IMG/VR virus record: IMGVR_UViG_3300034782_000041
Coordinates: 10,407-74,406 of that record
Source: a virus
Length of the DNA stretch: 64,000 nt
Reading direction: 5' to 3' (one strand)
In this document: positions 19,823-59,162 of the stretch, one piece after another
How the letters are laid out: every line of letters starts with the position of its first letter
How positions within the stretch are numbered: the first letter of the stretch is position 1
The notes under the pieces: generated by a model
Databases searched by the model: none
Seen by the model: only the letters and a program-made list of their open reading frames with translations
What the model was told of the DNA's origin: nothing
Position numbers and translations under genes: made by a program

Positions 19823-19975
19823 CTGCCTCTCCTTCGTCCCCTCGGGGACCGTCAGGAGTATGACGCTACGCGGGCGGGAATATTCGATTCGCAGACGCGA
19901 TTTTTCTTACACGACAATCAACAACGATTCTGCACGGTTAGGACTCTATTGCGTTGGGTTAGCCGCGGAAGGTAC

Positions 19976-20059
19976 AGGAGTCGAACCTGATCCCGTCAGG
20001 GACGCACCGGTTAGCAGCCGGGCTTCGCGCCACCACGAATTTACCTTCCAGGGCGAAAG
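19976..20059 (-). tRNA. tRNA-Ser(GCU), type II
   Basis: Hand fold of reverse complement: acceptor GGAAGGT/ACCTTCC, anticodon loop CUGCUAA, long variable arm, T-loop TTCGACT. Confidence 0.6.
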
Positions 20060-20069
20060 CGGAAGCGGA

Positions 20070-20152
20070 GGGAATCGAACCCCCAAGGCATATGCTCGCT
20101 CGGGTTCAAGCCGAGTGCCGTCACCTGTCGGCTAGCGCTTCCAAAAGTGGTT
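20070..20152 (-). tRNA. tRNA-Ser(UGA), type II
   Basis: Acceptor GGAAGCG/CGCTTCC, anticodon stem CTCGG/CCGAG loop CUUGAAC, long variable arm, T-loop TTCGATT. Confidence 0.6.
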
Positions 20153-20286
20153 CGGAGAACGATGCGCTCGGTTTGTTTAGCGTGTTGCCATTACACCACC
20201 GGTAACCCGGGTTGGAGTCGAACCAACATCTCTCGCTCCTCAAGCGAAGTAACCGAATGCTTTACTACCGAACCGGCGGAGAACGA

Positions 20287-20372
20287 GTGAGTCGAACACT
20301 ATGCGCAGCTGCGCACGCACCGGTTTCCAACCGGGCTCAGGTCCACACCTGATTCATTCTCCAACTGCATGC
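20287..20372 (-). tRNA. tRNA-Ser(GGA), type II
   Basis: Acceptor GGAGAAT/GTTCTCC (G-U at 7-66), anticodon loop UUGGAAA, variable-arm hairpin GCGCAG/CTGCGC. Confidence 0.5.
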
Positions 20373-20405
20373 GGAAGGCAGAGGTCTCGATCCCCAAGCT
20401 TGCGC

Positions 20406-20954
20406 TCACGCTGCTTTCGAGGCAGGCCCAGGCCCCGCCTGGTTTACCTTCCATGTCCATGCACGCCACGCCTCGGGCATGCCGGGCGTCCACGTCACTG
20501 TGATGTGTACGTCAGGCAGCTTCTTTGGCTTCACCGGCTTCGATCGTAGTCGCATGCCGGCTTGTTGTGGCGTTCGTCCACCCTTCTGTTGGTTGCACGC
20601 TACGCAACAGATGACTACGTTCTCCCAGGTCGTTTGCCCGCCGAGCGTTCGCGGCACAACGTGATCATAGGTAGCCTCCAGACGTGGCACTTGATCTCCA
20701 CAGTACTGGCACCTTCCGTGATCGCGTGTGTAGACGTTCTCGCGTGAGAACTTCACGACACGCTTCTTTCGTCGCATCCGCGTGATGAATCGAACGACGG
20801 ATGGCATCTTGATCGAGAACGTCACCGACCGGATGTTTCTGTCGGTGTATTCATCCACGACCTCTACCTTGCCAAGGAAGAGCAAAGTGATTGCACGTTG
20901 CCAGTGGATCCGCGCCACGGGCAAGTAGGACTGATCGAGAACCAACGTGTCCAT
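20406..20954 (-). CDS. HNH homing endonuclease
   Basis: CQYCGDQVP..DHVVPRTLGGQTTWENVVICCVACNQQKG (HNH with CxxC/CxxC zinc site); inserted inside the tRNA array. Confidence 0.75.
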   Translation of the reverse strand: MDTLVLDQSYLPVARIHWQRAITLLFLGKVEVVDEYTDRNIRSVTFSIKMPSVVRFITRMRRKKRVVKFSRENVYTRDHGRCQYCGDQVPRLEATYDHVVPRTLGGQTTWENVVICCVACNQQKGGRTPQQAGMRLRSKPVKPKKLPDVHITVTWTPGMPEAWRAWTWKVNQAGPGPASKAA

Positions 20955-20981
20955 GACTCGCTCCTTTCTGGTTGCTGTCCG

Positions 20982-21061
20982 TGCTCAGAGAGGGACTCGA
21001 ACCCTCACGCCGAAGCATCCGCTTTTGAGACGGACGTGTATGCCTATTCCACCATCTGAGC
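20982..21061 (-). tRNA. tRNA-Leu(CAA), type II
   Basis: Acceptor GCTCAGA/TCTGAGC, anticodon stem TCCGT/GCGGA loop CUCAAAA, 11-nt variable arm, T-arm GAGGG-TTCGAGT-CCCTC. Confidence 0.6.
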
Positions 21062-21067
21062 TTATCG

Positions 21068-21146
21068 TGCCCGAGGAGAGATTTGAACTCTCACGCCGAA
21101 GCAGCTGGGTTTAGGCCAGCCGTGTATGCCCTTCCACCACTCGGGC
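21068..21146 (-). tRNA. tRNA-Leu(UAA), type II
   Basis: Acceptor GCCCGAG/CTCGGGC, anticodon stem GCTGG/CCAGC loop CCUAAAC, T-loop TTCAAAT. Confidence 0.6.
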
Positions 21147-21150
21147 GTCG

Positions 21151-21224
21151 TACCACCGGAGAGACTCGAACTCTCAACACCTCGGTCCTTAGCCGAGACC
21201 CTCTTCCAATTGGGGCACGGTGGC
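21151..21224 (-). tRNA. type-I (short variable arm) tRNA with anticodon AAG (leucine CUU family), A73
   Basis: Acceptor GCCACCG/CGGTGGT (G1-U72), D-arm CCCC-AATTGGAAGA-GGG, anticodon stem CTCGG/CCGAG loop CUAAGGA, 5-nt variable region. Confidence 0.45.
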
Positions 21225-21226
21225 AG

Positions 21227-21297
21227 CTCCGGCTCAGGGACTCGAACCCCGATACCACGATCCAGAGTCGTGGGTCCTACCGTTAGACGAAGCCGGA
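21227..21297 (-). tRNA. tRNA-Gln(CUG)
   Basis: Acceptor TCCGGCT/AGCCGGA, anticodon stem CACGA/TCGTG loop CUCUGGA. Confidence 0.55.
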
Positions 21298-21301
21298 ATG
21301 G

Positions 21302-21372
21302 TTCGGGGTCTGGGACTCGAACCCAGATTGCTCGGGTCAAAGCCGAGTATCTTGCCATTGGATCAACCCCGA
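21302..21372 (-). tRNA. tRNA-Gln(UUG)
   Basis: Acceptor TCGGGGT/ACCCCGA, anticodon stem CTCGG/CCGAG loop CUUUGAC. Confidence 0.55.
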
Positions 21373-21376
21373 GTAG

Positions 21377-21450
21377 AGCGGACGATGGGACTCGAACCCA
21401 TACGACGAGGTTGGAAGCCTCGCATGCTGGCCGTTGAACATCACGCCCGC
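21377..21450 (-). tRNA. tRNA-Gly(UCC)
   Basis: Acceptor GCGGGCG/CGTCCGC, anticodon stem CGAGG/CCTCG loop CUUCCAA. Confidence 0.55.
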
Positions 21451-21454
21451 TTTG

Positions 21455-21525
21455 TGCCCCCGGAAGGACTCGAACCCTCGTAGCCTGATTAAAGGTCAGG
21501 TATGACACCACTTCATCACGGAGGC
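21455..21525 (-). tRNA. tRNA-Lys(UUU)
   Basis: Acceptor GCCTCCG/CGGGGGC, anticodon stem CCTGA/TCAGG loop CCUUUAA. Confidence 0.55.
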
Positions 21526-21528
21526 GAG

Positions 21529-21602
21529 TACCTGTGGTCAGACTCGAACTGACACTGTACGCGTTCTGAGCGCGCTCCCTCTTCCAATTGGGGTACACAG
21601 GC
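21529..21602 (-). tRNA. type-I (short variable arm) tRNA with anticodon CAG (leucine CUG family), A73
   Basis: Acceptor GCCTGTG/CACAGGT, same D-arm as the AAG tRNA (CCCC-AATTGGAAGA-GGG), anticodon stem GCGCG/CGCGT loop CUCAGAA. Confidence 0.45.
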
Positions 21603-21727
21603 AAAAGATGCAGCCCATCGCCCGATGGAGACCTTCTCTCCAATCCCTTAGAGCCCGTGAATCGATCCACTAGGGACGGTCACTACAACCGCCCTGCCGA
21701 AACTTCGACTAGCTGTGGCCGCATCAG

Positions 21728-21800
21728 TACCGGTCCTGAGAATCGAACTCAGCGCGTCCTGCTTGTAAGGCAGGTCCCACCCCCAGGTGAGCTGACCGGC
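21728..21800 (-). tRNA. tRNA-Val(UAC)
   Basis: Acceptor GCCGGTC/GACCGGT, anticodon stem CCTGC/GCAGG loop CUUACAA, T-arm CTGAG-TTCGATT-CTCAG. Confidence 0.5.
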
Positions 21801-21804
21801 GTGG

Positions 21805-21875
21805 TCGCAGCGGAGGGAATCGGACCCTCACGGTCTCGCTTATGAGACGAGCCGCCTAACCCGTAGGTCGCTGCG
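21805..21875 (-). tRNA. tRNA-Met(CAU), elongator-type, T-loop UCCGAUU
   Basis: Acceptor CGCAGCG/CGCTGCG, anticodon stem CTCGT/GCGAG loop CUCAUAA; could alternatively be Ile2 (lysidine) tRNA. Confidence 0.5.
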
Positions 21876-21878
21876 TGG

Positions 21879-21950
21879 TAGCGGGGGCTGGAATTGCACC
21901 AGCGTGGTCAGGCTTATGAGACCTGACAGGTAACTAGCAACCTCCCCGCA
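21879..21950 (-). tRNA. second CAU-anticodon tRNA (Met/fMet/Ile2) with non-canonical T-loop UGCAAUU and 1-72 mismatch
   Basis: Acceptor TGCGGGG/CCCCGCT (U1.U72), anticodon stem CAGGT/GCCTG loop CUCAUAA, T-arm GCTGG-TGCAATT-CCAGC. Confidence 0.4.
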
Positions 21951-21954
21951 AAAG

Positions 21955-22022
21955 CGCCTCCATCAGGAATCGAACCCGAGTAGCTGCTTTAGAAGAGCAG
22001 CGCCTCATCCATGAGTAGAGGC
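21955..22022 (-). tRNA. tRNA-Arg(UCU)
   Basis: Acceptor GCCTCTA/TGGAGGC, anticodon stem CTGCT/AGCAG loop CUUCUAA; compact D-arm. Confidence 0.5.
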
Positions 22023-22025
22023 AAG

Positions 22026-22093
22026 TACCACTGGACGGAGTCGAACCATCTCTTCAGGTTTAGGAGACCCGAATCTGTTCCACCAGCAGTGGC
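22026..22093 (-). tRNA. tRNA-Arg(CCU)
   Basis: Acceptor GCCACTG/CAGTGGT, anticodon stem CGGGT/ACCTG loop CUCCUAA. Confidence 0.5.
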
Positions 22094-22097
22094 ATCG

Positions 22098-22166
22098 TGC
22101 CTCTACGAGGAATCGAACCTCGTCTTCCGAGTTCGTAGCCCGGAGTCCGGCTCCACCGGCAGAGGC
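22098..22166 (-). tRNA. tRNA-Arg(ACG)
   Basis: Acceptor GCCTCTG/TAGAGGC, anticodon stem CCGGG/CTCGG loop CUACGAA. Confidence 0.5.
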
Positions 22167-22173
22167 GAATCAG

Positions 22174-22245
22174 AGCCCAAGGACAGAATCGAACTGTCAT
22201 CTCTCGCGTACCGGGCGAGTGCTCTCTCCATTGAGCTACGAGGGC
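22174..22245 (-). tRNA. tRNA-Thr(GGU) (two acceptor-stem mismatches, C33)
   Basis: D-arm GCTC-AATGGA-GAGC, anticodon stem CTCGC/GCGAG loop CCGGUAC, T-arm GACAG-TTCGATT-CTGTC; acceptor GCCCTCG/CTTGGGC has mismatches at 5-68 and 6-67. Confidence 0.4.
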
Positions 22246-22249
22246 GTCG

Positions 22250-22321
22250 TGGACCGCCGGGGAATCGAACCCCGATCTTCTGGGTGCAAACCAGATGTGT
22301 TCCCGTTATCACTAGCAGCCC
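22250..22321 (-). tRNA. tRNA-Ala(UGC) with G3-U70
   Basis: Acceptor GGGCTGC/GCGGTCC, D-arm GTG-ATAACGGGAA-CAC, anticodon stem TCTGG/CCAGA loop UUUGCAC, A73. Confidence 0.55.
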
Positions 22322-22325
22322 TTAG

Positions 22326-22345
22326 GCGGGCCTTCCACCCGCTCG
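22326..22345. repeat. intergenic hairpin repeat copy 1 (GCGGGCCTTCCACCCGCTCG)
   Basis: 20-nt motif with GCGGG/CCCGC stem, identical copy at 22662-22681; both sit in tRNA spacers. Confidence 0.55.
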
Positions 22346-22418
22346 TGGACACCGTCGGGATCGAACCGACCACATCCGGCTTGCAAGGCCAGATCGCCCC
22401 CTTGGTACATGGGTGCCC
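22346..22418 (-). tRNA. second tRNA-Ala(UGC)-like copy with G3-U70 (weak D-stem)
   Basis: Acceptor GGGCACC/GGTGTCC, anticodon stem CTGGC/GCCGG loop CUUGCAA, T-loop TTCGATC. Confidence 0.4.
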
Positions 22419-22585
22419 ATAACGACGAGGAACTAACCCCGCCGACACGTTTTTGTCTCCTCCTCGAACAGAGGCGTCCCTCCTCAGAGGCCAATACTGG
22501 AAGCTCCCAGCAAGTCCGCAGCTAGCTAAGCCCGACTACGCTGTCTGTTCGCCCAGCAGCAAGGCAGGTACGTGCTCCTGCATTG

Positions 22586-22657
22586 TGGACCAACTGGGAA
22601 TCGAACCCAGATCTCTGCCGTGCGAAAGCAGCGTGTTCCCTTTATCACTATTGGCCC
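22586..22657 (-). tRNA. tRNA-Ala(CGC) with G3-U70
   Basis: Acceptor GGGCCAA/TTGGTCC, D-arm GTG-ATAAAGGGAA-CAC, anticodon stem CTGCT/GGCAG loop UUCGCAC. Confidence 0.55.
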
Positions 22658-22661
22658 TTGT

Positions 22662-22681
22662 GCGGGCCTTCCACCCGCTCG
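22662..22681. repeat. intergenic hairpin repeat copy 2 (GCGGGCCTTCCACCCGCTCG)
   Basis: Identical to 22326-22345. Confidence 0.55.
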
Positions 22682-22704
22682 GAGACGCGTCCGTCTCTTG
22701 GCCG

Positions 22705-22777
22705 TGCCACTCCTCGGTAACGCTCCGAGCCCTCCGGCTTTTCAGGCCGGCGCTTCCACTTGGTTAGCTTGGGTGGC
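22705..22777 (-). tRNA. tRNA-Phe(GAA) with non-canonical T-loop AGCGUUA
   Basis: Acceptor GCCACCC/GAGTGGC (one mismatch), D-stem GCT/AGC, anticodon stem CCGGC/GCCGG loop CUGAAAA, T-arm CTCGG-AGCGTTA-CCGAG. Confidence 0.45.
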
Positions 22778-22788
22778 AAACGGATTTG

Positions 22789-22859
22789 TAGCCCAGCTAG
22801 GAGTTGAACCTAGATCACTCGCTTATAAGGCAAGCGCCCTGCCGTTGTGCTACTGGGCC
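22789..22859 (-). tRNA. tRNA-Ile(UAU)
   Basis: Acceptor GGCCCAG/CTGGGCT (G1-U72), anticodon stem CTTGC/GCGAG loop CUUAUAA, T-arm CTAGG-TTCAACT-CCTAG. Confidence 0.4.
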
Positions 22860-22931
22860 AACAAATGCGGGCCTCGCACCCGCTCGGAGGTGACGGTTTA
22901 GGGCTTCGCTTTCGCGCCACACCTCTAGCCG

Positions 22932-23003
22932 CGGAGCTGACGGGAATTGAACCCGCCTCGCCGGTTAGACAGACCGGTAGCCTCACCAGATGCTTACAGC
23001 TCC
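22932..23003 (-). tRNA. tRNA-Asp(GUC)
   Basis: Perfect acceptor GGAGCTG/CAGCTCC, anticodon stem CCGGT/ACCGG loop CUGUCUA, T-loop TTCAATT, G73. Confidence 0.6.
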
Positions 23004-23045
23004 AAACGCGAGCGTGCTCCCTTGTTACACCACGGCGCGGCGACC

Positions 23046-23069
23046 GCAACCGACAGGAATCGAACCTGC
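23046..23069 (-). other. orphan tRNA 3-prime half (acceptor strand + T-arm) without room for a 5-prime half
   Basis: ACAGG-AATCGAA-CCTGC T-arm signature preceded by 7-nt acceptor-like strand; only 28 nt before the next tRNA. Confidence 0.3.
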
Positions 23070-23097
23070 ACTTCCCGCTCTAACTATGACTTCTTGG

Positions 23098-23169
23098 GGT
23101 GAGCGAGAAGAATCGAACTTCCATCACGCGGGCCACAACCGCGCGCTCTGCCATTGAGCTACGCCCACC
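23098..23169 (-). tRNA. tRNA-His(GUG) with G-1 and C73
   Basis: G(-1)+GTGGGCG/CGCTCAC acceptor, D-arm GCTC-AATGGC-AGAGC, anticodon stem CGCGG/CCGCG loop UUGUGGC. Confidence 0.65.
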
Positions 23170-23174
23170 ATCAG

Positions 23175-23245
23175 TTCCCCCGGACAGAGTTGCGCTGTCA
23201 TCTCTCGCTTATCAAGCGAGTGCTCTCCTGTTGAGCTACAGGGGA
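23175..23245 (-). tRNA. tRNA-Ile(GAU) with non-canonical T-loop CGCAACU
   Basis: Acceptor TCCCCTG/CGGGGGA, D-arm GCTC-AACAGG-AGAGC, anticodon stem CTCGC/GCGAG loop UUGAUAA, T-arm GACAG-CGCAACT-CTGTC. Confidence 0.5.
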
Positions 23246-23249
23246 TCAG

Positions 23250-23321
23250 TCGGAGTGGCTGGGATCGAACCAGCGATCTCATGGTCCCGAACCATGCGCG
23301 ATACCGCTTCGCTACACCCCG
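23250..23321 (-). tRNA. tRNA-Pro(CGG)
   Basis: Acceptor CGGGGTG/CACTCCG, D-stem GCGA/TCGC, anticodon stem CATGG/CCATG loop UUCGGGA. Confidence 0.55.
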
Positions 23322-23322
23322 G

Positions 23323-23395
23323 TCGGAGCGACAGGACTCGAACCTGCATGCTCTTGGTCCCAAACCAAGCGGGTTGCCAAATACCCTACGCTCCG
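23323..23395 (-). tRNA. tRNA-Pro(UGG)
   Basis: Perfect acceptor CGGAGCG/CGCTCCG, D-stem GGGT/ACCC, anticodon stem CTTGG/CCAAG loop UUUGGGA. Confidence 0.6.
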
Positions 23396-23399
23396 GTTG

Positions 23400-23471
23400 T
23401 GACCCCGCCGAGAATCGAACTCGGATTGCTGGCTTGAAAGACCAGCTGCTTGACCGTTAGCAGACGAGGCC
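23400..23471 (-). tRNA. tRNA-Glu(UUC)
   Basis: Acceptor GGCCTCG/CGGGGTC (two G-U), D-stem TGCT/AGCA, anticodon stem CTGGT/GCCAG loop CUUUCAA. Confidence 0.5.
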
Positions 23472-23515
23472 AGAGGACGTGTTTTCCCTCGTCACTGGGA
23501 ATGCTTGCTTTGCGG

Positions 23516-23586
23516 AGGCTTCGGTGGGAGTCGAACCCACGATACAGGTTTTGCAGACCCGTGCCTTGCCACTTGACTACGAAGCC
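23516..23586 (-). tRNA. tRNA-Cys(GCA)
   Basis: Perfect acceptor GGCTTCG/CGAAGCC, anticodon stem CGGGT/ACCTG loop CUGCAAA, T-arm GTGGG-TTCGACT-CCCAC. Confidence 0.55.
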
Positions 23587-23588
23587 AG

Positions 23589-24098
23589 TCAGGTCAGGGG
23601 CATCCCTCTGTACTCCGCTACGGCACGAAGGAACGCCTCCCCCCTATCTCCAGTGTGCTCCTGTCGATGGCAATTGGAACACAGGAGTTCGCATTTCAGA
23701 ACTTCCTTCTTGACTACAGCCCACGCTCGGTTGCTGTTCTCGCTGATCTGAAAGTCCTTCTTACCGTTGTGGTGGAACTCAAAGGCTGCTGGACTCCCTG
23801 AGAAACCACAGCGTTGACACTTTCCGCCAAGGAGGGTTATAGCCGCAACCTTCACCCGATATCGCCTAATCCTAGATCGACAGGTGTAGCATACATCCCC
23901 TTTCCCGGGGACTAGCTTCCCTGAGCACAACCTACACCTAGTCGGCTTACGTCTTATATCGTGGATGTGGATCTTCTTCCGATTGTTAGCCCCAAATGGG
24001 GAGCAGGAAACGCAGTACCTACGACTCGACAGGTTCCGCACCTTCCCGTCTATGACTATTCGAGTAGGAAACTCTTCGTGGCACTTGGCGCATTCCAT
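23589..24098 (-). CDS. HNH endonuclease (second copy inside tRNA array)
   Basis: CQRCGF..FEFHHNGKKD..LLCSNCHRQEH (HNH with Cys4 zinc site); stop codon 2 nt from the tRNA-Cys 5-prime end. Confidence 0.6.
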   Translation of the reverse strand: MECAKCHEEFPTRIVIDGKVRNLSSRRYCVSCSPFGANNRKKIHIHDIRRKPTRCRLCSGKLVPGKGDVCYTCRSRIRRYRVKVAAITLLGGKCQRCGFSGSPAAFEFHHNGKKDFQISENSNRAWAVVKKEVLKCELLCSNCHRQEHTGDRGEAFLRAVAEYRGMPLT

Positions 24099-24156
24099 AG
24101 CTCTAAGGTACCTGAGAGTACGATCCTGCGTTAGTCAACGAGGGCCTTTCCTTTGA

Positions 24157-24230
24157 CTACCAGTAGCTCCCTCGATCCGACTTGAACGGATAACCCCCTG
24201 GTTAACGGCCAGGTGCTGCTACCAATTGAG
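24157..24230 (-). tRNA. tRNA-Asn(GUU)
   Basis: Perfect acceptor TCCCTCG/CGAGGGA, anticodon stem CCTGG/CCAGG loop CCGUUAA (C33), T-loop TTCAAGT. Confidence 0.5.
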
Positions 24231-24234
24231 CTAC

Positions 24235-24306
24235 GAGGGATCAGAGCTGGTGGAGGGAATCGAACCCCCAACCTACTGCTTACAAGGCAGTTGCACTTCC
24301 CTTGTG
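24235..24306 (-). tRNA. tRNA-Thr(UGU)
   Basis: Perfect acceptor GCTGGTG/CACCAGC, D-stem GCAC/GTGC, anticodon stem ACTGC/GCAGT loop CUUGUAA. Confidence 0.6.
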
Positions 24307-24313
24307 CTACACC

Positions 24314-24399
24314 AGCGAGCTAGTGGGGAACGGTGGAATCGAACCACATGCCCAAATGGGAAACGGTTTACAGCCGCTCGCCGGACCATCCAGCCTTAT
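24314..24399 (-). tRNA. tRNA-Tyr(GUA), type II
   Basis: Acceptor GGGGAGC/GTTCCCC, anticodon stem AGCGG/CCGTT loop CUGUAAA, variable-arm hairpin CCCA-TT-TGGG, T-loop TTCGATT; D-region irregular. Confidence 0.45.
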
Positions 24400-24403
24400 G
24401 ACG

Positions 24404-24474
24404 CTCCCCGCGGTGCCTCTGGAAGGAATTGCACCCTCATCAACGGGGTAAGAACCCGGTATTCTCCTGTTGAA
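24404..24474 (-). tRNA. tRNA-Lys(CUU) with non-canonical T-loop UGCAAUU
   Basis: Perfect acceptor GCCTCTG/CAGAGGC, D-stem GTTC/GAAT, anticodon loop UUCUUAC, T-arm GAGGG-TGCAATT-CCTTC. Confidence 0.4.
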
Positions 24475-24487
24475 CTACAGAGGCAAG

Positions 24488-24575
24488 ATGATCCTCCGAT
24501 GAGAAGGATCATGTACTGTCTTCGTCATCGTCAGCTATTCGATTACCAGAGGCTCGATTCACAAGCTATCGAGCC
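24488..24575. other. two strong 8-bp hairpins in a tRNA-free spacer of the array
   Basis: ATGATCCT-ccgatgaga-AGGATCAT (24488-24512) and GGCTCGAT-tcacaagct-ATCGAGCC (24551-24575). Confidence 0.45.
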
Positions 24576-24598
24576 AACATTCCAGAGAACGTTCGCGG

Positions 24599-24670
24599 AG
24601 CGGGCGACGGGAATCGAACCCGCCAGGGCCTGCCTGGCAGACAGGTGTCACGCCTTGTGACTTCACCCGC
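24599..24670 (-). tRNA. tRNA-Gly(GCC)
   Basis: Acceptor GCGGGTG/CGCCCGC, D-stem GTCA/TGAC, anticodon stem CCTGT/GCAGG loop CUGCCAG. Confidence 0.55.
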
Positions 24671-24686
24671 GTATTTCTTTCAGTGG

Positions 24687-24757
24687 AGCCGACGGACAGA
24701 GTCGAACTGTCATCCCCGCTTTACGAAAGCGGTGCACTACCGTTGTGCTACGAAGGC
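24687..24757 (-). tRNA. tRNA-Thr(CGU) (two acceptor-stem mismatches)
   Basis: D-stem GCAC/GTGC, anticodon stem CCGCT/AGCGG loop UUCGUAA, T-arm GACAG-TTCGACT-CTGTC; acceptor GCCTTCG/CGTCGGC mismatched at 4-69 and 5-68. Confidence 0.4.
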
Positions 24758-24771
24758 AGGTCTATGAATGG

Positions 24772-24838
24772 CGGGCCGCCGAGGAATCGAACCCCGCTGG
24801 CCGGATTTGGAGCCCAGCCTGATCCCAGATCGCAACCC
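24772..24838 (-). tRNA. tRNA-Trp(CCA)
   Basis: Acceptor GGGTTGC/GCGGCCC (two G-U), anticodon stem CTGGG/TCCGG loop CUCCAAA, G73; compact D-arm. Confidence 0.45.
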
Positions 24839-25060
24839 AGAAACCAAGAAAGCCAGGGAGACCTTTGTCTGCCCTGGCTTCCTAGTGTGGTCATGTTCTC
24901 TAGTTAGCCAGGGCGTGTCCTCCAGAGATTGGCCTGAATATCGTACGAGGACACGACGCTAAACGCACATGTACCCAGGCCCAACCCTTTGGGCTTTGGT
25001 TCGTGGTGCGTTTGGGTCGCGGCTAACATCACTCTCAGAATACAGGTACTCTACAAACTG

Positions 25061-25543
25061 TCAACCGTTTTCTCGCTCGATCGCAGGCACACCATAGGTC
25101 GCGAGGTTCTTGTTCTTGTAGCCGGCGACGGACGTGATTTCAAGCGCACTCTCAGCCCACCAAGGCAGATCGAATTCAAGCGCGCTGGCCTCGTCGGCAA
25201 ACTCGACTTCCAGAACGAAGAGGCCGGCTAGCTCACCAAGATATTCGTCCACCTCAAGCGTGTGCGTGTCGGTCTTGATGATTCGACGAAGCTTACGTAC
25301 GCGACGTCCCTCGGTCTGACGCCAAAGTAGATCAAACACCCAACGAGGTACCGTCGTGATCCATTCACGGCGCGCGAGGTTTCCGTCGTCCTTGACGGTG
25401 AGCACAGAGTGTACGCCGCCCTCTTCGCGAATGCGTAGCTCGCCAGGTGCAACGAACACGTAGCCCTGCACGATGGTGATAGGCGTCAGCGCCTGGACCT
25501 CAATCGGCAGGTGGGGGAGTAGAAATTTCCGCTCGATCTCCAT
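25061..25543 (-). CDS. CYTH-domain protein (triphosphate tunnel metalloenzyme / class IV adenylyl cyclase-like)
   Basis: N-terminal EIERKFLL signature of CYTH, followed by alternating acidic/basic beta-strand pattern (ELRIREEG..REWITTV..LEVDEY..LEVEF). Confidence 0.55.
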   Translation of the reverse strand: MEIERKFLLPHLPIEVQALTPITIVQGYVFVAPGELRIREEGGVHSVLTVKDDGNLARREWITTVPRWVFDLLWRQTEGRRVRKLRRIIKTDTHTLEVDEYLGELAGLFVLEVEFADEASALEFDLPWWAESALEITSVAGYKNKNLATYGVPAIERENG

Positions 25544-29541: not shown

Positions 29542-30093
29542 CTACGCGCCAATTTTGCTCAAGTATCGATCCACTTCGACGAGCAGCGCACGGCCCTCCT
29601 CGAAGAGCCTCTGGTCGGATTCAGATTCGCAGGCCTTTACTGCCAGTAAGCAATGCGCCGCCTTGGCGATCTTGCCCTTGATATCGAAAACGGCTTGCTC
29701 AGCATCATATGCGCGGCGTCGTGCAATTTCTCCGTTGACGATGCCTTGCTTCTGCTTCATGAAACCGAGCGCCTTGCGGGCTCGTTGCCACCAGTCGAAG
29801 TCGTCCACCAACTGGCTCGCGTCATCAAGGCTGATGCTGTAGCGGCCGCTAAGCGCTTCTGCGAAACGATCCAAGTCGAATGCTATAGCTGGGCCTAGCT
29901 CGCGGGCGACCTCACGTACGACTTGCAGCTCGTAGCTTTCTGTTTCAATTTGTGCTTGCAGAGCAGCGACTGCGCCCTGGATCTCCTCGTTCAGGCCTCG
30001 CAGTTCGTAGGTTTTCAGAGTCCGCACGGTGGCTCCGAATGTGTGCGTTCGCTGCGTCTGCCACCACGGTCGATCTGTGTGTGCCTCAGGCAT
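29542..30093 (-). CDS. hypothetical protein
   Basis: 183-aa ORF. Confidence 0.4.
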   Translation of the reverse strand: MPEAHTDRPWWQTQRTHTFGATVRTLKTYELRGLNEEIQGAVAALQAQIETESYELQVVREVARELGPAIAFDLDRFAEALSGRYSISLDDASQLVDDFDWWQRARKALGFMKQKQGIVNGEIARRRAYDAEQAVFDIKGKIAKAAHCLLAVKACESESDQRLFEEGRALLVEVDRYLSKIGA

Positions 30094-30559
30094 CTATGAG
30101 TTCTCTTGGGTTGATGATTTCTACAGGGCGCTGTACGGAGTTCGCGTATAGTACTGCGTCTGCTGTTCCTCCAGGGCCGCCGTGCCATACTGCTACGAGA
30201 ATCTCGCAGCGGTCTACAAGCCAGCGGTTGCGTGCGTCGAATTTCCAACGGGCAAAACCTGGCTCCGATACGTAGACTACCTCATGCGCCTCGGCGAGTA
30301 GATCACGATAGTATTGTTGAGTCTGAACGGGCCACCGACTTTCGTGGCCTGCAAACGGGATCGCGGCAACGAATGGGATATTCAACGCAATGCACGCCGC
30401 TGCGAAGTACTGATCCACACCGAGCGCCATGCCTGTGATGCCCTCACTTGCGCATCGATTTACCAGCGTGTATTTCAGCTCTGCTATGATCGGCGCACGA
30501 AGTGGTTCAAGGCCTGTGCCAAGCTTCTGGGGCCGATGGCCTGTGACACCTACGATCAT
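30086..30559 (-). CDS. SLOG-type Rossmann protein (DUF1273/YpsA-like)
   Basis: N-terminal MIVGVTGHRPQKLG characteristic of DUF1273/SLOG family. Confidence 0.35.
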   Translation of the reverse strand: MIVGVTGHRPQKLGTGLEPLRAPIIAELKYTLVNRCASEGITGMALGVDQYFAAACIALNIPFVAAIPFAGHESRWPVQTQQYYRDLLAEAHEVVYVSEPGFARWKFDARNRWLVDRCEILVAVWHGGPGGTADAVLYANSVQRPVEIINPRELIDA

Positions 30560-43731: not shown

Positions 43732-46700
43732 ATGCGGTTACGTCCGCAAGGACAGAGTCCTGTTCTACGTGCAGGACCTGCACCGATGATTCGTGGGCGC
43801 ATCGAGGGCGCGCTGTGTGAAGATTGTCCACTAGCCAGAAATAGACAACCTAACCAACCTGTTGTTGGGGAGGGGTCAGCGACGCCGGAATGGATTGTCA
43901 TTGGTGAAGGTCCGGGTCAGCACGAAGCTGCTTTAGGCCGTCCGTTCGTTGGCGCTAGCGGGCAGTTGGTCAACAAAGCACTCACAGCCGTTGGGCAAGA
44001 TCGGCGCCGCTTGTGGGTGTCTAACGTTACGTTGTGCCGACCGCCACCAGAGGCTGACGACAACTTGAAAGAAAAGGCCCGCAAGTGCTGCGAGCCACGT
44101 TTTACCGCAGAGATGGTTGAGCGCCCAGGCCTTCCTGTGCTCGCCCTCGGTGCTGTGGCAACTCGCGCATTCCTCGGGCGCAACACTTCGATCCAGGCGT
44201 TGGCGGGCTCCTATCATCAGGTCAACGCGGACGGTTCAGGCTACCGCGCAGTCATCCCAACGATTCACCCTGCGGCAATCCTCCGCGGGGGCGCCGGAAT
44301 TGGCGGCGCGCACTCGCCAGACATTGCTTTCTGGAATCTGATGTACGACGCAGCGAAGGTGAAGGCCATCGCTGCCGGACGCGATATCGTCTTCCGCGAG
44401 GAGGACATCGTCGTCGAGTACGCTGACGCCAGACGCGCCGAGATGCTTATGCGTCGGATGGTGCAAGATGCTCGCAGAGAGCGCATGGTAGCCTGCGACA
44501 CCGAGACCTACGTAGACAACGAGCAACAGCATTCTGCACTACAGCCCATCAACGCAAAGTTGACCGCCATCGGCTTCGCTACCCCAAAGTGGGGCCTTTC
44601 GATAGCATGGAACATCGTCACACCGATGGCCAAGCGCCTCATGGCTGCGCTTATGGCCGATCCGCTTGTTCGTGTCGTGTTCCACAACTCGATATATGAC
44701 CGTGGTGTTTTGAAACGGCATGGAATGCCCGTACACGGTCCAGTCGATGACACGTTGCTCAAACACCACGCAGCCTTTCCTGGCCTTTCGCACAACCTGC
44801 AACGCGCGGCTACGCAGTACTTCGCGATCACGCCGTGGAAATCGGAGTTCCGTGAAGGCAAAGACACGGTTGAGAACCTCGTAATCTATAACGCCAAGGA
44901 CACACTAGTTACCGCACGCCTCGACGAGCCCCTCGATATCGCCATCGCGCGCACACAGTCTGCGAAGTGCTACGAGATTGATCTTCTGTGCGCAGAAGCC
45001 GCGGAATGGATGTACGACGCGGGCATCCCGGTTTCACAGGAGGTGAATCAACAGCTCTACGATCAGTTCTGGCAGAACATGCAGCGGGCGCGTGCAGAAA
45101 TCGAAGAGAAGGCTAACAACCCTGAGATCCGCGACAAGCTGCTTGATCGCATCGCGGCAGAGCAAGCCAAGCGTGTTCGCAAAGGGACTGCGGCCAAACA
45201 GGACCCCGAACGCTACGAGGCCCGACAACAGGTTCGCTTGGACGAAATTCGGATCGCCGCAGACAGAGGCGCTTGGAAGTGGCAAATCAATTCGTCGGCG
45301 CATCTTGCTGGTTGGTTGAAGGTCCACGGGCTTGATGTGCCCCTGACCAAAAAGGGTGCGGCCAGCATCACGAAGGCGTGGCTCAAAGATCACGCGGACA
45401 AGCACCCAGCCATCCAAGCACTCTACGCGTGGCGTAGCGACAAGGAAAACGAAGCGCTCCGTAAGATCGTTGAGGACGACGCTGCCCGGCCTGAGATCCA
45501 GGAAGAGCTATGGGTTGGCATTGCAGCCGAGCAAGCGAAGTTCGCACGTAACCCAAAAGGTAAAGAGCCAGATCCGGAAGACTATCGGGAGCGACAAAAG
45601 GTACGCCTGCAAGAGCTGCTCGATTCCATCGATAAAGCTACGTGGGAGTGGAACGTTGGCTCCTCGGATCACATCGTTGGTTATCTAAAGGCTCGTGGAG
45701 TGCCGCTCTACTTCCTGACCGAGAAGGGTTCGACGTCCACGAAGAAAGAGATCCTGGAAAGCTTCGCGCACATCCCCGAAGTACGTAGCCTGTTGGACTA
45801 CCGCGAGAATCAGAAACTGTTCTCTACCTTCGTCTACGCGCTCTTTGATCGATATGACGAACAGGGCAACATCGTCAAGTACGGCTATGCAGACGCGAAC
45901 AGTCGCGTGCATCCGCGGTGGAATGTCCATCGGATCACAGGCCGATGGAGTGCTGAAGATCCAGTCTGCCAGAACGTGCCGAAAGCTGACGCGAAGAAGG
46001 GGCGCCCAAATCTCCGCAAACAGTTTGAAGCACGCCTTGGACGGATCCTTGTTGGCTTCGACTTCGCGCAGCTAGAAGCACGAATCATCGCACTTCTTTC
46101 CGGCGATCCATTCCTGTGCGCGATCTTCAACGACGGGAAGGATATCCACAGCGAGTTCGCACGCATCGTTTGGCCCAACTTCGACGAGTTACCTTATGAG
46201 CGCCGCAAGGTTCTCCGCGATACGGTCAAGCGGCCCGAGTATGGGGCATTCTACGGAGGGTCGATCGACACGCTCTGGAAGAACGTGGTCAAGGACTACC
46301 CGGACGTAAAGCAGGCTGACATCGCGCGGATGGTCGCGTTGATGACCGCGCGGATGCCCGGCGTTACGGCGTGGCATCAGAAGCTTCTGCGAGACGTTGC
46401 CCAGCCACCGCACGAGCTGCGGTCGGCAATCTACGGTCGGCGACGGTGTTTCCCTCTGGGCAACGCTGACATGAACGACGTGTACAACTTCCCGGTTCAG
46501 TCGACTGGAGCTGACATCATGGCCACTGGGCTCCTCCGTTTGATGCCAAAGCTACGCAACGAATACTCTAACGCTGACCCGATCATCCAGATCCACGACG
46601 CCATCGTTTTCGAGTGCGACGAGGCTGACGGCGACCGCTTGATGACTGACGTCAAAGACTGCTTCGAGCAGACTCACACACATAACGGCGTCACGATTCA

Positions 46701-46746
46701 CTTCTCGGTAGACCCTGCGAAAGGCCGGAGCTGGGCAGATGTCTAA
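43732..46746 (+). CDS. family A DNA polymerase with N-terminal family-4 uracil-DNA glycosylase-like domain
   Basis: UDG4 motif GEGPGQHEAALGRPFVGASGQLVNKAL; 3-5 exo motif VACDTETYVD; pol motif A DFAQLEARIIA, motif B RRKVLRDTVKRPEYGAFYG, motif C IQIHDAIVFECDE. Confidence 0.8.
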   Translation: MRLRPQGQSPVLRAGPAPMIRGRIEGALCEDCPLARNRQPNQPVVGEGSATPEWIVIGEGPGQHEAALGRPFVGASGQLVNKALTAVGQDRRRLWVSNVTLCRPPPEADDNLKEKARKCCEPRFTAEMVERPGLPVLALGAVATRAFLGRNTSIQALAGSYHQVNADGSGYRAVIPTIHPAAILRGGAGIGGAHSPDIAFWNLMYDAAKVKAIAAGRDIVFREEDIVVEYADARRAEMLMRRMVQDARRERMVACDTETYVDNEQQHSALQPINAKLTAIGFATPKWGLSIAWNIVTPMAKRLMAALMADPLVRVVFHNSIYDRGVLKRHGMPVHGPVDDTLLKHHAAFPGLSHNLQRAATQYFAITPWKSEFREGKDTVENLVIYNAKDTLVTARLDEPLDIAIARTQSAKCYEIDLLCAEAAEWMYDAGIPVSQEVNQQLYDQFWQNMQRARAEIEEKANNPEIRDKLLDRIAAEQAKRVRKGTAAKQDPERYEARQQVRLDEIRIAADRGAWKWQINSSAHLAGWLKVHGLDVPLTKKGAASITKAWLKDHADKHPAIQALYAWRSDKENEALRKIVEDDAARPEIQEELWVGIAAEQAKFARNPKGKEPDPEDYRERQKVRLQELLDSIDKATWEWNVGSSDHIVGYLKARGVPLYFLTEKGSTSTKKEILESFAHIPEVRSLLDYRENQKLFSTFVYALFDRYDEQGNIVKYGYADANSRVHPRWNVHRITGRWSAEDPVCQNVPKADAKKGRPNLRKQFEARLGRILVGFDFAQLEARIIALLSGDPFLCAIFNDGKDIHSEFARIVWPNFDELPYERRKVLRDTVKRPEYGAFYGGSIDTLWKNVVKDYPDVKQADIARMVALMTARMPGVTAWHQKLLRDVAQPPHELRSAIYGRRRCFPLGNADMNDVYNFPVQSTGADIMATGLLRLMPKLRNEYSNADPIIQIHDAIVFECDEADGDRLMTDVKDCFEQTHTHNGVTIHFSVDPAKGRSWADV

Positions 46747-57462: not shown

Positions 57463-57473
57463 CGATCCTCCGG

Positions 57474-57546
57474 TACACCCGGAGGGAATCGAACCCCCAC
57501 CTTGCAGCTCCACAGACTGCACGCTCGGCCTTCGAGCTACGGGTGT
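57474..57546 (-). tRNA. isolated tRNA with anticodon GUG (His-like) but no G-1
   Basis: Perfect acceptor ACACCCG/CGGGTGT, D-arm GCTC-GAAGGCC-GAGC, anticodon stem GCAGT/GCTGC loop CUGUGGA, T-arm GGGGG-TTCGATT-CCCTC, A73. Confidence 0.45.
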
Positions 57547-57570: not shown

Positions 57571-58629
57571 CTATGACACACGTAGAATCTCCAACACGTC
57601 AGCTGGCGTGAGACAAAACCATTCGGTTCGTTCGTCACGGGCTTTCTGGTCGGCGTATCTCGCGTGTAGATATTTCTCTTGTTCTCGCGTTCCGGGGATA
57701 GTGCCTAGCAGCCGCAGCGTATCAGCGTTGCCGGTCTGTAGTGCGGCTAGCCGCTTCGCAGGTGTACTATCCGTCCATCCGATTTTGACACGCCCACGCC
57801 CATCCTGGATGAGATAGATAGCACCTGTGTTGTCATCCTCGGATTGAAACATCGTCGCCCAAGCGTCTTTCGCGTGACGCGCATAGAGCAAGTGCTCGAA
57901 CGCGTCTGGGCAGGACTCAGCGCGATCAAGCGGATCGCTTTCGTGGTCGTCGATCCTTTTTTCGTCAACTTCCGTCAGCCGGTAGTTGATGATCCCAAAA
58001 GTGTCCCACCGGTTGGTGCGCCTCGGCCAGGGTATATGACACAGCGGCGGCAGTGTCCACAGGCGACGGTTATCGTACGTTACTTGCTCGGGTCGAAACC
58101 AAGGAGGCAAACTCGACGTGTAACGTGACAAGTCAACGACGTGCTCATCGTTGCGGAGATCGGGGTGATCACGGAGTAACGTATCAACGCGTTTGACAAT
58201 CTTGTCGTGATACTTACGAGCAGTGTCACGTAGGATTAGCGCTTGGTCGCCTCCGAGTGCAATGTGCAATCCGAGATAGAGCACAATCTGTTCGTGGACG
58301 TCCGACGTCGTGCATGTCGAGAACCAGTCTACGACAGGACGTGGGATCAATGTCACGTAGATCGTACCCGTGTCATGTGCTGTCTTCGGATCGAAGAACG
58401 TTCGCGTGACCACAGCCTGGTGGAGGCGTTCTAACGCAAGTACACCGGCAATGTTGTTAGGACACGCTACGACACTTGAATCCGATTGGCAGCGGAGATG
58501 ACAGACCTCTCCCCACTCTTTCCGGCCATCGAGCCGCGCGGTAGGCACATAGCCCTGCCTACGCCAATACCGGAAGCTGTGCAGGTCATCGAATGGTGGC
58601 CGATCTAGGTCACAGGGTGATGTGAGCAT
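57571..58629 (-). CDS. protein with C-terminal T5orf172 (GIY-YIG superfamily) domain
   Basis: C-terminal GAIYLIQDGRGRVKIGWTDSTPAKRLAALQTGNADTLRLLGTIPGT..EKYLHARYADQ..RTEWF matches the T5orf172 domain; start trimmed from 58872 to MLTSPCDL. Confidence 0.5.
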   Translation of the reverse strand: MLTSPCDLDRPPFDDLHSFRYWRRQGYVPTARLDGRKEWGEVCHLRCQSDSSVVACPNNIAGVLALERLHQAVVTRTFFDPKTAHDTGTIYVTLIPRPVVDWFSTCTTSDVHEQIVLYLGLHIALGGDQALILRDTARKYHDKIVKRVDTLLRDHPDLRNDEHVVDLSRYTSSLPPWFRPEQVTYDNRRLWTLPPLCHIPWPRRTNRWDTFGIINYRLTEVDEKRIDDHESDPLDRAESCPDAFEHLLYARHAKDAWATMFQSEDDNTGAIYLIQDGRGRVKIGWTDSTPAKRLAALQTGNADTLRLLGTIPGTREQEKYLHARYADQKARDERTEWFCLTPADVLEILRVS

Positions 58630-58664
58630 GGCCTGACTATACTGGCCAGGCCTGACGTATTCTG

Positions 58665-59162
58665 TCAGGTCGCCGAAACCTCCTTGCAGATGTTGCACAA
58701 CTCCTCGTCGAACATAGGAGTTTCCCACACGTACGGCTTGCGGCGCCCGTTCTGCGTGACCTCCTCGTAGCGTCGTCGTTGTACGGCTTCCTCGTCGAGG
58801 AACTTGCGGAGAAATGCTGCTTGGTCGTCGAGCGTGTCGATGACCGAGCTGGCGAAGAGATACTCGGTCCACTTGCGTTCCTGGCCGGGCCCGAGCCGCT
58901 TCTGGTATGTGAGAAAGTCAGCGTCCTCGAACCGGTTGCGTGCGCGCATGGCCTCGACATGTTGCTGCGCTACGGATCGCCAGCCGCCGTGGTACTTCTG
59001 ATAGCTCTGGCAGTGGAGCTTTCCCCGCATGTGCGAAATCATCATGCAGAGGACTGTTGCTTTGCGTCCGCTGGCCTGTTTGACCGCAGCTTTCAGGCGG
59101 TCTCGCACTGCACGTCGTTGGGCCCATACATCTTCGGTAATCTCTGCTGTTGCTTGCATCAT
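58665..59162 (-). CDS. hypothetical protein
   Basis: 165-aa ORF with balanced composition. Confidence 0.4.
   Translation of the reverse strand: MMQATAEITEDVWAQRRAVRDRLKAAVKQASGRKATVLCMMISHMRGKLHCQSYQKYHGGWRSVAQQHVEAMRARNRFEDADFLTYQKRLGPGQERKWTEYLFASSVIDTLDDQAAFLRKFLDEEAVQRRRYEEVTQNGRRKPYVWETPMFDEELCNICKEVSAT

Follow-up and report, generated by a model that had tools for sequence, protein, structure and literature searches.

Two short transfer RNA (tRNA) genes with leucine anticodons, on bodies without the long variable arm of bacterial tRNALeu, raise the question of which amino acid they deliver. They are located in a stretch of 64,000 nucleotides from a virus (IMG/VR record IMGVR_UViG_3300034782_000041, positions 10,407 to 74,406), hereafter called the window, where tRNA-Leu(AAG) occupies positions 21151..21224 and tRNA-Leu(CAG) positions 21529..21602, both on the minus strand. 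A preliminary description, in which the strand went unmentioned, had proposed either that these class-I bodies are charged by a non-leucyl synthetase, as is the CUG-reading serine tRNA of Candida, or that they are an adaptation to host codon usage, and had considered either reading notable. The analysis presented here indicates that both genes very probably specify functional leucine tRNAs, belonging to a lineage of class-I tRNALeu (short variable loop) that would circulate in phages and mobile bacterial tRNA arrays.

Two class-I tRNA genes with leucine anticodons

ARAGORN placed the two genes at 21150-21224 and 21528-21602 on the minus strand. With the Rfam model RF00005, for which the gathering score is 29, the AAG gene obtained 47.0 bits (E=7e-8) and the CAG gene 51.0 bits (E=6e-9). 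Each 74-mer has a cloverleaf as its minimum free energy (MFE) fold, the variable loop being 5 nt long (GUGUU for AAG, ACAGU for CAG), and the Rfam alignment of both genes has a class-I topology too, with a nonstandard pair at 13:22. The short variable region reported earlier is thus confirmed by fold and alignment alike, and refolding to a long variable arm is ruled out, as 74 nt leave too little space for it.

The AAG tRNA can be laid out as GCCACCG-UG-CCCC-AAUUGGAAGA-GGG-U-CUCGG-CUAAGGA-CCGAG-GUGUU-GAGAG-UUCGAGU-CUCUC-CGGUGGU-A and the CAG tRNA as GCCUGUG-UA-CCCC-AAUUGGAAGA-GGG-A-GCGCG-CUCAGAA-CGCGU-ACAGU-GUCAG-UUCGAGU-CUGAC-CACAGGU-A. The former has U8, G9, G37, U48 and A73, and a G1.U72 pair in its acceptor stem GCCACCG/CGGUGGU; the latter has U8, A9, A37, U48 and A73, again with G1.U72, in the acceptor stem GCCUGUG/CACAGGU. 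The anticodons AAG (A34 A35 G36; 21188..21190, minus strand) and CAG (21566..21568, minus strand) were read from the sequence and called by ARAGORN, and they lie in 7-nt loops, CUAAGGA and CUCAGAA, each with U33 and on a 5-bp stem. A D-arm 17-mer, CCCCAAUUGGAAGAGGG, is located at 21199..21215 in the AAG gene and at 21577..21593 in the CAG gene, on the minus strand, and is letter-identical in the two; its plus-strand form is CCCCAATTGGAAGAGGG. The anticodons, A73 and the shared D-arm had all been described correctly before.

The universally conserved positions of tRNAs (U8, A14, G18G19, U33, a purine at 37, G53:C61 and the UUCGA T-loop) are intact in both genes, and the acceptor, anticodon and T-stems are made up of standard base pairs throughout (17/17 in each gene). 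The D-stem of both consists of 3 bp (C10:G25, C11:G24, C12:G23) and a C13.A22 mismatch. An alternative register of this stem, with GAGG as the 3' strand, was rejected: it needs an anticodon stem of 6 bp and clashes with the alignment of related tRNAs described below. The AAG and CAG genes are bona fide tRNAs; CCA is encoded in neither.

Leucine identity and the meaning of the CUN codons

The D-arm, which had been called unusual, is of the tRNALeu type, as judged by alignment with that of Escherichia coli tRNALeu. The D-arm of E. coli tRNALeu(CAG), GCGG-AAUUGGUAGA-CGC, and that of the phage genes, CCCC-AAUUGGAAGA-GGG, have the same spacing, with 9 of the 10 loop bases identical. Both sequences align base for base, each with a 3-bp stem, an unpaired 13:22 and a 10-nt stretch in between. 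The E. coli reference sequence is 100% identical to annotated tRNA-Leu genes and is present with at least 99% identity in nearly all of 5426 E. coli genomes.

Leucine identity in E. coli is determined by A73, the A15-U48 Levitt pair, G18G19, A20a and tertiary pairs between the D-loop and the T-loop (Giege and Eriani 2023, PMC9976931). The leucyl-tRNA synthetase (LeuRS) of this species needs neither the anticodon nor the long variable arm, and arm-deleted tRNALeu variants are still substrates for charging and editing (PMC9976931). The determinants A73, A14, A15-U48 (the Levitt pair), G18G19 and A20a are all found in both window genes, in which the variable region is a 5-nt loop and not the long arm of class-II bacterial tRNALeu.

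A leucine anticodon on a class-I body departs from the textbook class-II tRNALeu of bacteria, and the AAG tRNA has a 3' half similar to that of enterobacterial tRNA-Trp (80% identical over positions 13-68). These features would fit charging of the class-I bodies by a synthetase other than LeuRS, with CUG and CUU read fully or partly as another amino acid. Such recoding or mistranslation is extremely improbable in view of the identity elements. Serine identity (G73 and a long arm) is absent from both genes, which have A73 and no long arm, and so is the alanine element G3:U70, as position 3:70 is C:G in both and G3:U70 occurs in 0/41 of the family members listed. An anticodon loop of 8 nt is likewise lacking, both loops being of 7 nt. 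The LeuRS identity set is kept, and the long arm is no E. coli determinant. The anticodon is read by most other synthetases, which would not accept AAG or CAG. A tRNATrp identity, to which the BLAST match with tRNA-Trp had pointed, was ruled out by A73, the non-CCA anticodon and the 3-bp Leu-type register of the D-arm; the tryptophanyl-tRNA synthetase requires G73 and a CCA anticodon.

The same body is found in other viral and in bacterial contigs with UUR (R, purine) as well as CUN (N, any nucleotide) anticodons and with no others (47/47 listed matches, described in the next section). A recoding must therefore hit all six leucine codons, across phages of E. coli, Mycobacterium, Streptomyces and cyanobacteria. 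Nor was a synthetase gene found among the 30 open reading frames (ORFs) scanned in the window, which is part of the genome only; the same holds for genes encoding a CCA-adding enzyme or a deaminase. The proposal of a non-Leu synthetase is thus unsupported: leucine determinants are kept, serine and alanine identity is absent, and the anticodons of the family are those of leucine only.

The CUN codons of the phage itself behave as leucine codons. The DNA polymerase encoded in the window (43732-46746) was aligned with 70 homologues that are 36-70% identical to it, and columns with a consensus of at least 60% were considered. All of the CTG, CTC and CTT codons on these columns (5, 13 and 2, respectively) fall on leucine-consensus positions (20/20), and control codons behaved as expected. 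Mismatch at conserved leucine positions or depletion of CUN codons, the mark of CUN reassignment, was not seen in the polymerase gene, the one gene on which this test rests.

Several points weigh against the assignment of both tRNAs to leucine. Database translations assume the standard code, by which a recoding shared by close relatives stays hidden. For this reason, distant homologues were added (25-34% identical, and one from a bacterial genome bin; consensus cut-off 50%), and 11 of 12 CTG/CTC/CTT columns in this set were leucine and one was isoleucine. The long arm matters for the LeuRS of Aquifex, unlike that of E. coli; as LeuRS requirements differ between bacteria, independence from the arm is not universal. 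The CAG tRNA has A37 following G36, while bacterial CUN-reading tRNALeu usually has G37 (m1G37). Nor is a G1.U72 pair or A34 typical of tRNALeu in bacteria, and no report of aminoacylation or expression of any member of the family was found in the literature searched. A37, G1.U72 and the differing LeuRS requirements point to no other amino acid.

A class-I tRNALeu family in phages and mobile arrays

A 14-mer from the D-arm, CCAATTGGAAGAGG, which is clear of the anticodon, was used to scan IMG/VR and one genome per GTDB species (at least 120 loci each). Each match was scored on both strands for pairing in the acceptor, anticodon and T-stems (17 pairs). Among the matches listed, the scores were bimodal, with a background of 4-12/17 and tRNAs at 13-17/17. 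A73 and a leucine anticodon are common to all 47 listed matches (45 unique) with at least 13/17 stem pairs, and all six leucine anticodons occur (CAA 12, UAA 12, AAG 10, UAG 9, GAG 2 and CAG 2). ARAGORN, used independently, concurred for those listed in 32/32 cases in viral contigs and 9/9 in genome contigs. The 9 listed members in genome contigs are all located in loci of 10-34 tRNAs; these loci are mobile tRNA arrays. The exact 17-mer is present in 8 IMG/VR contigs and, in 6 of these, lies within a 75-77-nt tRNA with a leucine anticodon. One body combined with CUN-box and UUR anticodons only is the pattern expected of a leucine acceptor and is hardly compatible with another amino acid.

A stricter parse of the listed matches gave 41 unique sequences. 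U48 is present in 39/41, and the variable loop is 5 nt long in 36 and 6 nt in 5. U72 was found in 29/41 (G1.U72 in 20, A1:U72 in 9) and G1:C72 in 12/41. The AAG anticodon occurs in 7 of these members, and both G37 and A37 are seen among family members with NAG anticodons. The window genes have all the features by which the family is defined, namely the D-arm motif CCAAUUGGAAGAGG, a variable loop of 5-6 nt, A73 and a leucine anticodon, and they also share its location in a dense phage or mobile tRNA array.

In an alignment of 35 members, 98.1% of the stem cells were paired, as opposed to 31-46% with the partners slid, although pre-filtering of these members for pairing inflates this percentage. 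Compensatory changes are not inflated in this way: 199 double-sided changes were counted versus 51 +/- 6 in shuffles, and 15/20 pairs have compensatory changes. This covariation argues for selection on the fold.

It also bears on whether the two genes take part in translation at all. They might be nonfunctional relics or tRNA-like elements outside translation, such as targets of homing endonucleases or recombination sites; an HNH endonuclease gene is located inside the array, CCA is not encoded, and some members of mobile arrays decay, two tRNAs of the window array (Leu(GAG) at 20201-20274 and an Ile(GAU) with an odd T-loop) having a degenerate appearance. The strong compensatory covariation in the family, the intact conserved positions, the 17/17 standard stem pairs, the Rfam scores of 47 and 51 bits and the fit of the anticodons to the most used leucine codons of the phage make a relic or nontranslational role highly unlikely for the AAG and CAG genes.

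Short leucine tRNAs of this type are also present in cultured phages. The best cultured-phage matches of the CAG gene are almost all annotated as tRNA-Leu, and a family member from Citrobacter phage Moogle (UAG) matches 314 phage records, nearly all listed hits being annotated as tRNA-Leu. Among the hosts are Escherichia, Salmonella, Shigella, Citrobacter, Cronobacter, Mycobacterium, Streptomyces, Enterococcus, cyanobacteria and Myxococcus. Such routine annotation also speaks against recoding, and to call either reading of the window genes, which join a widespread phage family, notable was an overstatement. Genes of 74-77 nt with the same D-arm were found in phage Moogle (UAG), Synechococcus phage S-CBWM1 (UAA) and Mycobacterium phage Kykar (UAA), and close variants of the D-arm in Streptomyces phage Francob (CAA) and Vibrio phage 6E35.1a. 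The RefSeq record of Mycobacterium phage Cali (Bxz1 species) holds tRNA-Leu genes of 76, 75 and 74 nt with the anticodons CAG, GAG and CAA, respectively, so that RefSeq, a public resource, already contains a phage Leu(CAG) of class I.

The literature has paid little attention to these tRNAs. Behra et al. described a horizontally acquired mycobacterial tRNA cluster with an HNH gene in which the variable loop of a tRNALeu(UAG) is short (Behra et al. 2019, PMC6582537), and this passing remark was the only mention of class-I bacterial or phage tRNALeu found in the literature searched. Long tRNA arrays and their homing endonucleases have been described, without the short-arm leucine feature (Santamaria-Gomez et al. 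2021). The class-I tRNALeu lineage of phages and mobile arrays is thus known and widely annotated albeit little discussed, and the window genes are new members of it.

Some short leucine tRNAs in the collected loci have a fully canonical leucine D-arm, e.g., GUGGCGGAACGGCAGACGCG; those with a UUUU-type variable loop are found, for instance, in loci L222 and L243 (GAG) and L205 (UAG). Their sequences suggest that the arm has been lost from class-II tRNALeu repeatedly or gradually. In tRNAs that accept leucine, arm loss could itself be adaptive, allowing escape from host toxins, nucleases or factors that use the arm, or providing a minimal LeuRS substrate across phyla. Phage tRNAs counter tRNA-directed defences. 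We know of no work on this subject that concerns the long arm of tRNALeu, and no defence system is known to recognise this arm in a fitting way. The D-arm is nearly invariant across phages of Proteobacteria, Actinobacteria, Firmicutes, Cyanobacteria and Myxococcota, and U72 is enriched (29/41 listed members). Short leucine tRNAs outnumber class-II ones by 83 to 19 in the collected loci (L001-L252), a ratio biased by the selection of loci that hold one short family member. Two class-II leucine tRNAs have nevertheless been kept in the window array, and the data are explained equally well if a dispensable arm was lost neutrally and the arm-less form then spread horizontally. Adaptive arm loss, which adds to the leucine explanation without excluding it, is therefore considered unlikely, and the same doubt applies to the wider proposal that the arm-less tRNALeu form a distinct, horizontally spreading lineage in which arm loss and perhaps the U72 signature are adaptive. 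If that proposal were true, the AAG and CAG genes would have arisen in the lineage by a switch of anticodon, as members specialised for CUN.

A locus related to that of the window was found in a contig of a Polyangia metagenome-assembled genome (L210; JBNLED010000093.1, 3900-4340). Its Leu(AAG) is 85% identical to the Leu(CAG) of the window, and its Leu(CAG) is approximately 81% identical to the Leu(AAG) of the window. From these cross-identities it would follow that anticodons were switched between otherwise related bodies. Together with the match to Myxococcus phage Mx1 described below, this locus weakly hints at a host among the Myxococcota.

Codon supply, the tRNA array and known systems

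Leucine accounts for 8.5% of the codons in 70 non-overlapping ORFs of the window. The shares of its codons are 0.33 for CUC, 0.24 for CUG, 0.16 for CUU, 0.15 for UUG, 0.11 for CUA and 0.02 for UUA. CUC, CUG and CUU make up 73% of the leucine codons of the phage, and this is therefore the part addressed by the anticodons GAG, AAG and CAG; the array lacks a Leu(UAG) for CUA. The idea of an adaptation in codon supply can be retained in this form: it fits the phage's own usage of CUC, CUG and CUU (33%, 24% and 16% of leucine codons), where host usage had been invoked.

The two leucine tRNAs would function as follows. The transcript of the array would be cut into individual tRNAs, to which a host enzyme would add CCA post-transcriptionally, since none is encoded. 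Host LeuRS would then charge both with leucine by reading A73 and the core formed by the D-loop and T-loop, disregarding the anticodon and, at least in E. coli, the long arm. The CAG tRNA would decode CUG and the AAG tRNA CUU; if A34 is deaminated to inosine, the latter might read CUC and CUA too. Outside tRNAArg(ACG), A34 is rare in bacteria. Other A34 tRNAs were seen in neighbouring arrays, namely Ile(AAU) in L007 and Asn(AUU) in L210. A tRNALeu(IAG) has been documented in Lactobacillales (PMC13249217). Together with Leu(GAG), the two tRNAs could supply the three most used leucine codons of the phage during infection, and decoding capacity for CUG and CUU/CUC may be raised late in infection.

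The Leu(GAG) tRNA (20201..20274, minus strand) is the third short tRNA with a leucine anticodon in the array. It was called by ARAGORN and scored 36.6 bits with Rfam; its MFE fold is not a cloverleaf. With a D-arm of GUAA-AGCAUUCGG-UUAC it stands outside the class-I leucine family, and four consecutive G.U pairs are present in its acceptor stem. Over its 3' two-thirds, which comprises the anticodon arm, variable loop and T-arm, the molecule shares 89% identity with the tRNA-Phe(GAA) of Myxococcus phage Mx1. The two anticodons differ at position 36 only, and a tRNA-Phe is absent from the window array. No relatives of the anticodon arm were found in a scan of IMG/VR. The body thus appears ambiguous and partly Phe-like. 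The gene might descend from a tRNA-Phe in which the anticodon has shifted, and it may be a better candidate for a mismatch between body and anticodon than the AAG and CAG genes, although it may equally be decaying.

The whole array extends from 19965 to 24845 on the minus strand and contains 32 tRNAs found by ARAGORN and one added by Rfam, often separated by spacers of only 1-4 nt. The latter, an Ile(GAU) at 23175-23245 (minus strand; 59.9 bits) that was missed by ARAGORN, has the anticodon loop UUGAUAA and an atypical T-loop, CGCAACU. Two canonical class-II tRNAs, Leu(CAA) at 20981-21061 and Leu(UAA) at 21067-21146 (both minus strand), are present, as had been noticed before; ARAGORN and Rfam identify both, and the variable arm is 11 nt long in either case, with UUCG as its loop. 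The HNH endonuclease ORF inside the array is located at 20406..20954 on the minus strand (PHROG HNH, E=5e-37). Its homologues are found inside other phage and bacterial tRNA arrays (L007, L109, L079, L172, L205 and others; tblastx, 37-53% identity), a distribution to be expected if homing endonucleases drive the mobility of the arrays.

The window comes from a phage. Besides the HNH endonuclease inside the array, its products include a family-A DNA polymerase, helicases of the SNF2 and other types, and a primase-like protein. No close relative of this phage emerged among cultured phages or in IMG/VR. Megablast of the array against 50,697 cultured-phage records yielded one 73-nt match only, and a helicase-based scan of IMG/VR for relatives gave no match. 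The best cultured-phage matches of the DNA polymerase are 24-29% identical to it, and an exact-protein look-up with the helicase returned only short metagenomic contigs of the same phage, which break at the array.

Other features of the window, all on the minus strand, are a lone second tRNA-His(GUG) (57472-57546), far from the array, and several ORFs. The ORF adjoining this tRNA (57571-58872) contains a T5orf172/MUG113 (GIY-YIG-like) domain, an ORF with a CYTH domain (25061-25543) directly adjoins the array, and another (30086-30559) has a YpsA/DprA-like SLOG domain. In an 868-aa ORF (30633-33239), matches were obtained to the shoulder domain of the Major Vault Protein (PF11978, E=3e-30) and to a vault repeat (PF17795, E=2.5e-9), by which the ORF is classed as a vault-protein-like gene in a phage.

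The findings have some consequences for annotation. A short phage-array tRNA with a leucine anticodon should not be counted as evidence of codon reassignment; a Leu-type D-arm and A73 identify such tRNAs as tRNALeu. The textbook rule that bacterial tRNALeu is class II fails for tRNAs of phages and mobile arrays, among which class-I tRNALeu with a conserved body are common, although the literature searched hardly mentions them. The class-I tRNALeu amount to a natural experiment on the minimal needs of LeuRS and might serve as a portable scaffold for engineering. The window adds only two members to the lineage.

Among known systems, canonical class-II E. coli tRNALeu(CAG) has the same D-arm architecture and a similar loop (3-bp stem, 13:22 mismatch, AAUUGGNAGA), has A15/U48 and A73 in common with the window genes, and is recognised by LeuRS independently of its anticodon. 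It differs from them in having a variable stem-loop of 13-15 nt instead of a 5-nt loop and G1:C72 instead of G1.U72; A37 of the CAG tRNA of the window is a further difference. Animal mitochondrial tRNALeu(UUR) is also a class-I leucine tRNA without a long arm and is recognised via A73 and A14 (PMC9976931), but it is organellar, has a relaxed structure and a mitochondrial LeuRS of its own, and is unrelated in sequence to the two genes of the window.

Candida tRNASer(CAG), yeast mitochondrial tRNAThr(UAG) and Ashbya mitochondrial tRNAAla(UAG) resemble the window genes in combining a CUN-reading anticodon with a body other than that of standard tRNALeu. These reassigning tRNAs carry the elements of their new identity, i.e., G73 and a long arm, as in tRNASer generally, for serine, an 8-nt anticodon loop on a His-derived body for threonine, and G3:U70 for alanine. 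The window genes have none of these and carry leucine elements instead.

Horizontally transferred bacterial L-arrays, such as the mycobacterial clusters (Behra et al. 2019) and the Anabaena trn operon (Santamaria-Gomez et al. 2021), are likewise dense arrays with an embedded HNH gene; they are chromosomal or plasmid-borne, whereas the window array is located in a phage genome with replication genes. In the short tRNA-Leu of cultured phages (Moogle/Felix-O1-like, Cali/Bxz1, Kykar, S-CBWM1 and Francob), the D-arm, RCCC-AAUUGGAAGA-GGY, is identical or almost identical to that of the window genes. These tRNAs also have A73, a variable loop of 5 nt with U48 as its last base and, in many cases, G1.U72 or A1:U72; they carry leucine anticodons and are located in tRNA arrays. 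They differ from the window genes in the sequences of their stems, with an overall identity of approximately 76-80%, and the AAG anticodon of one of the window genes is less common in the family.

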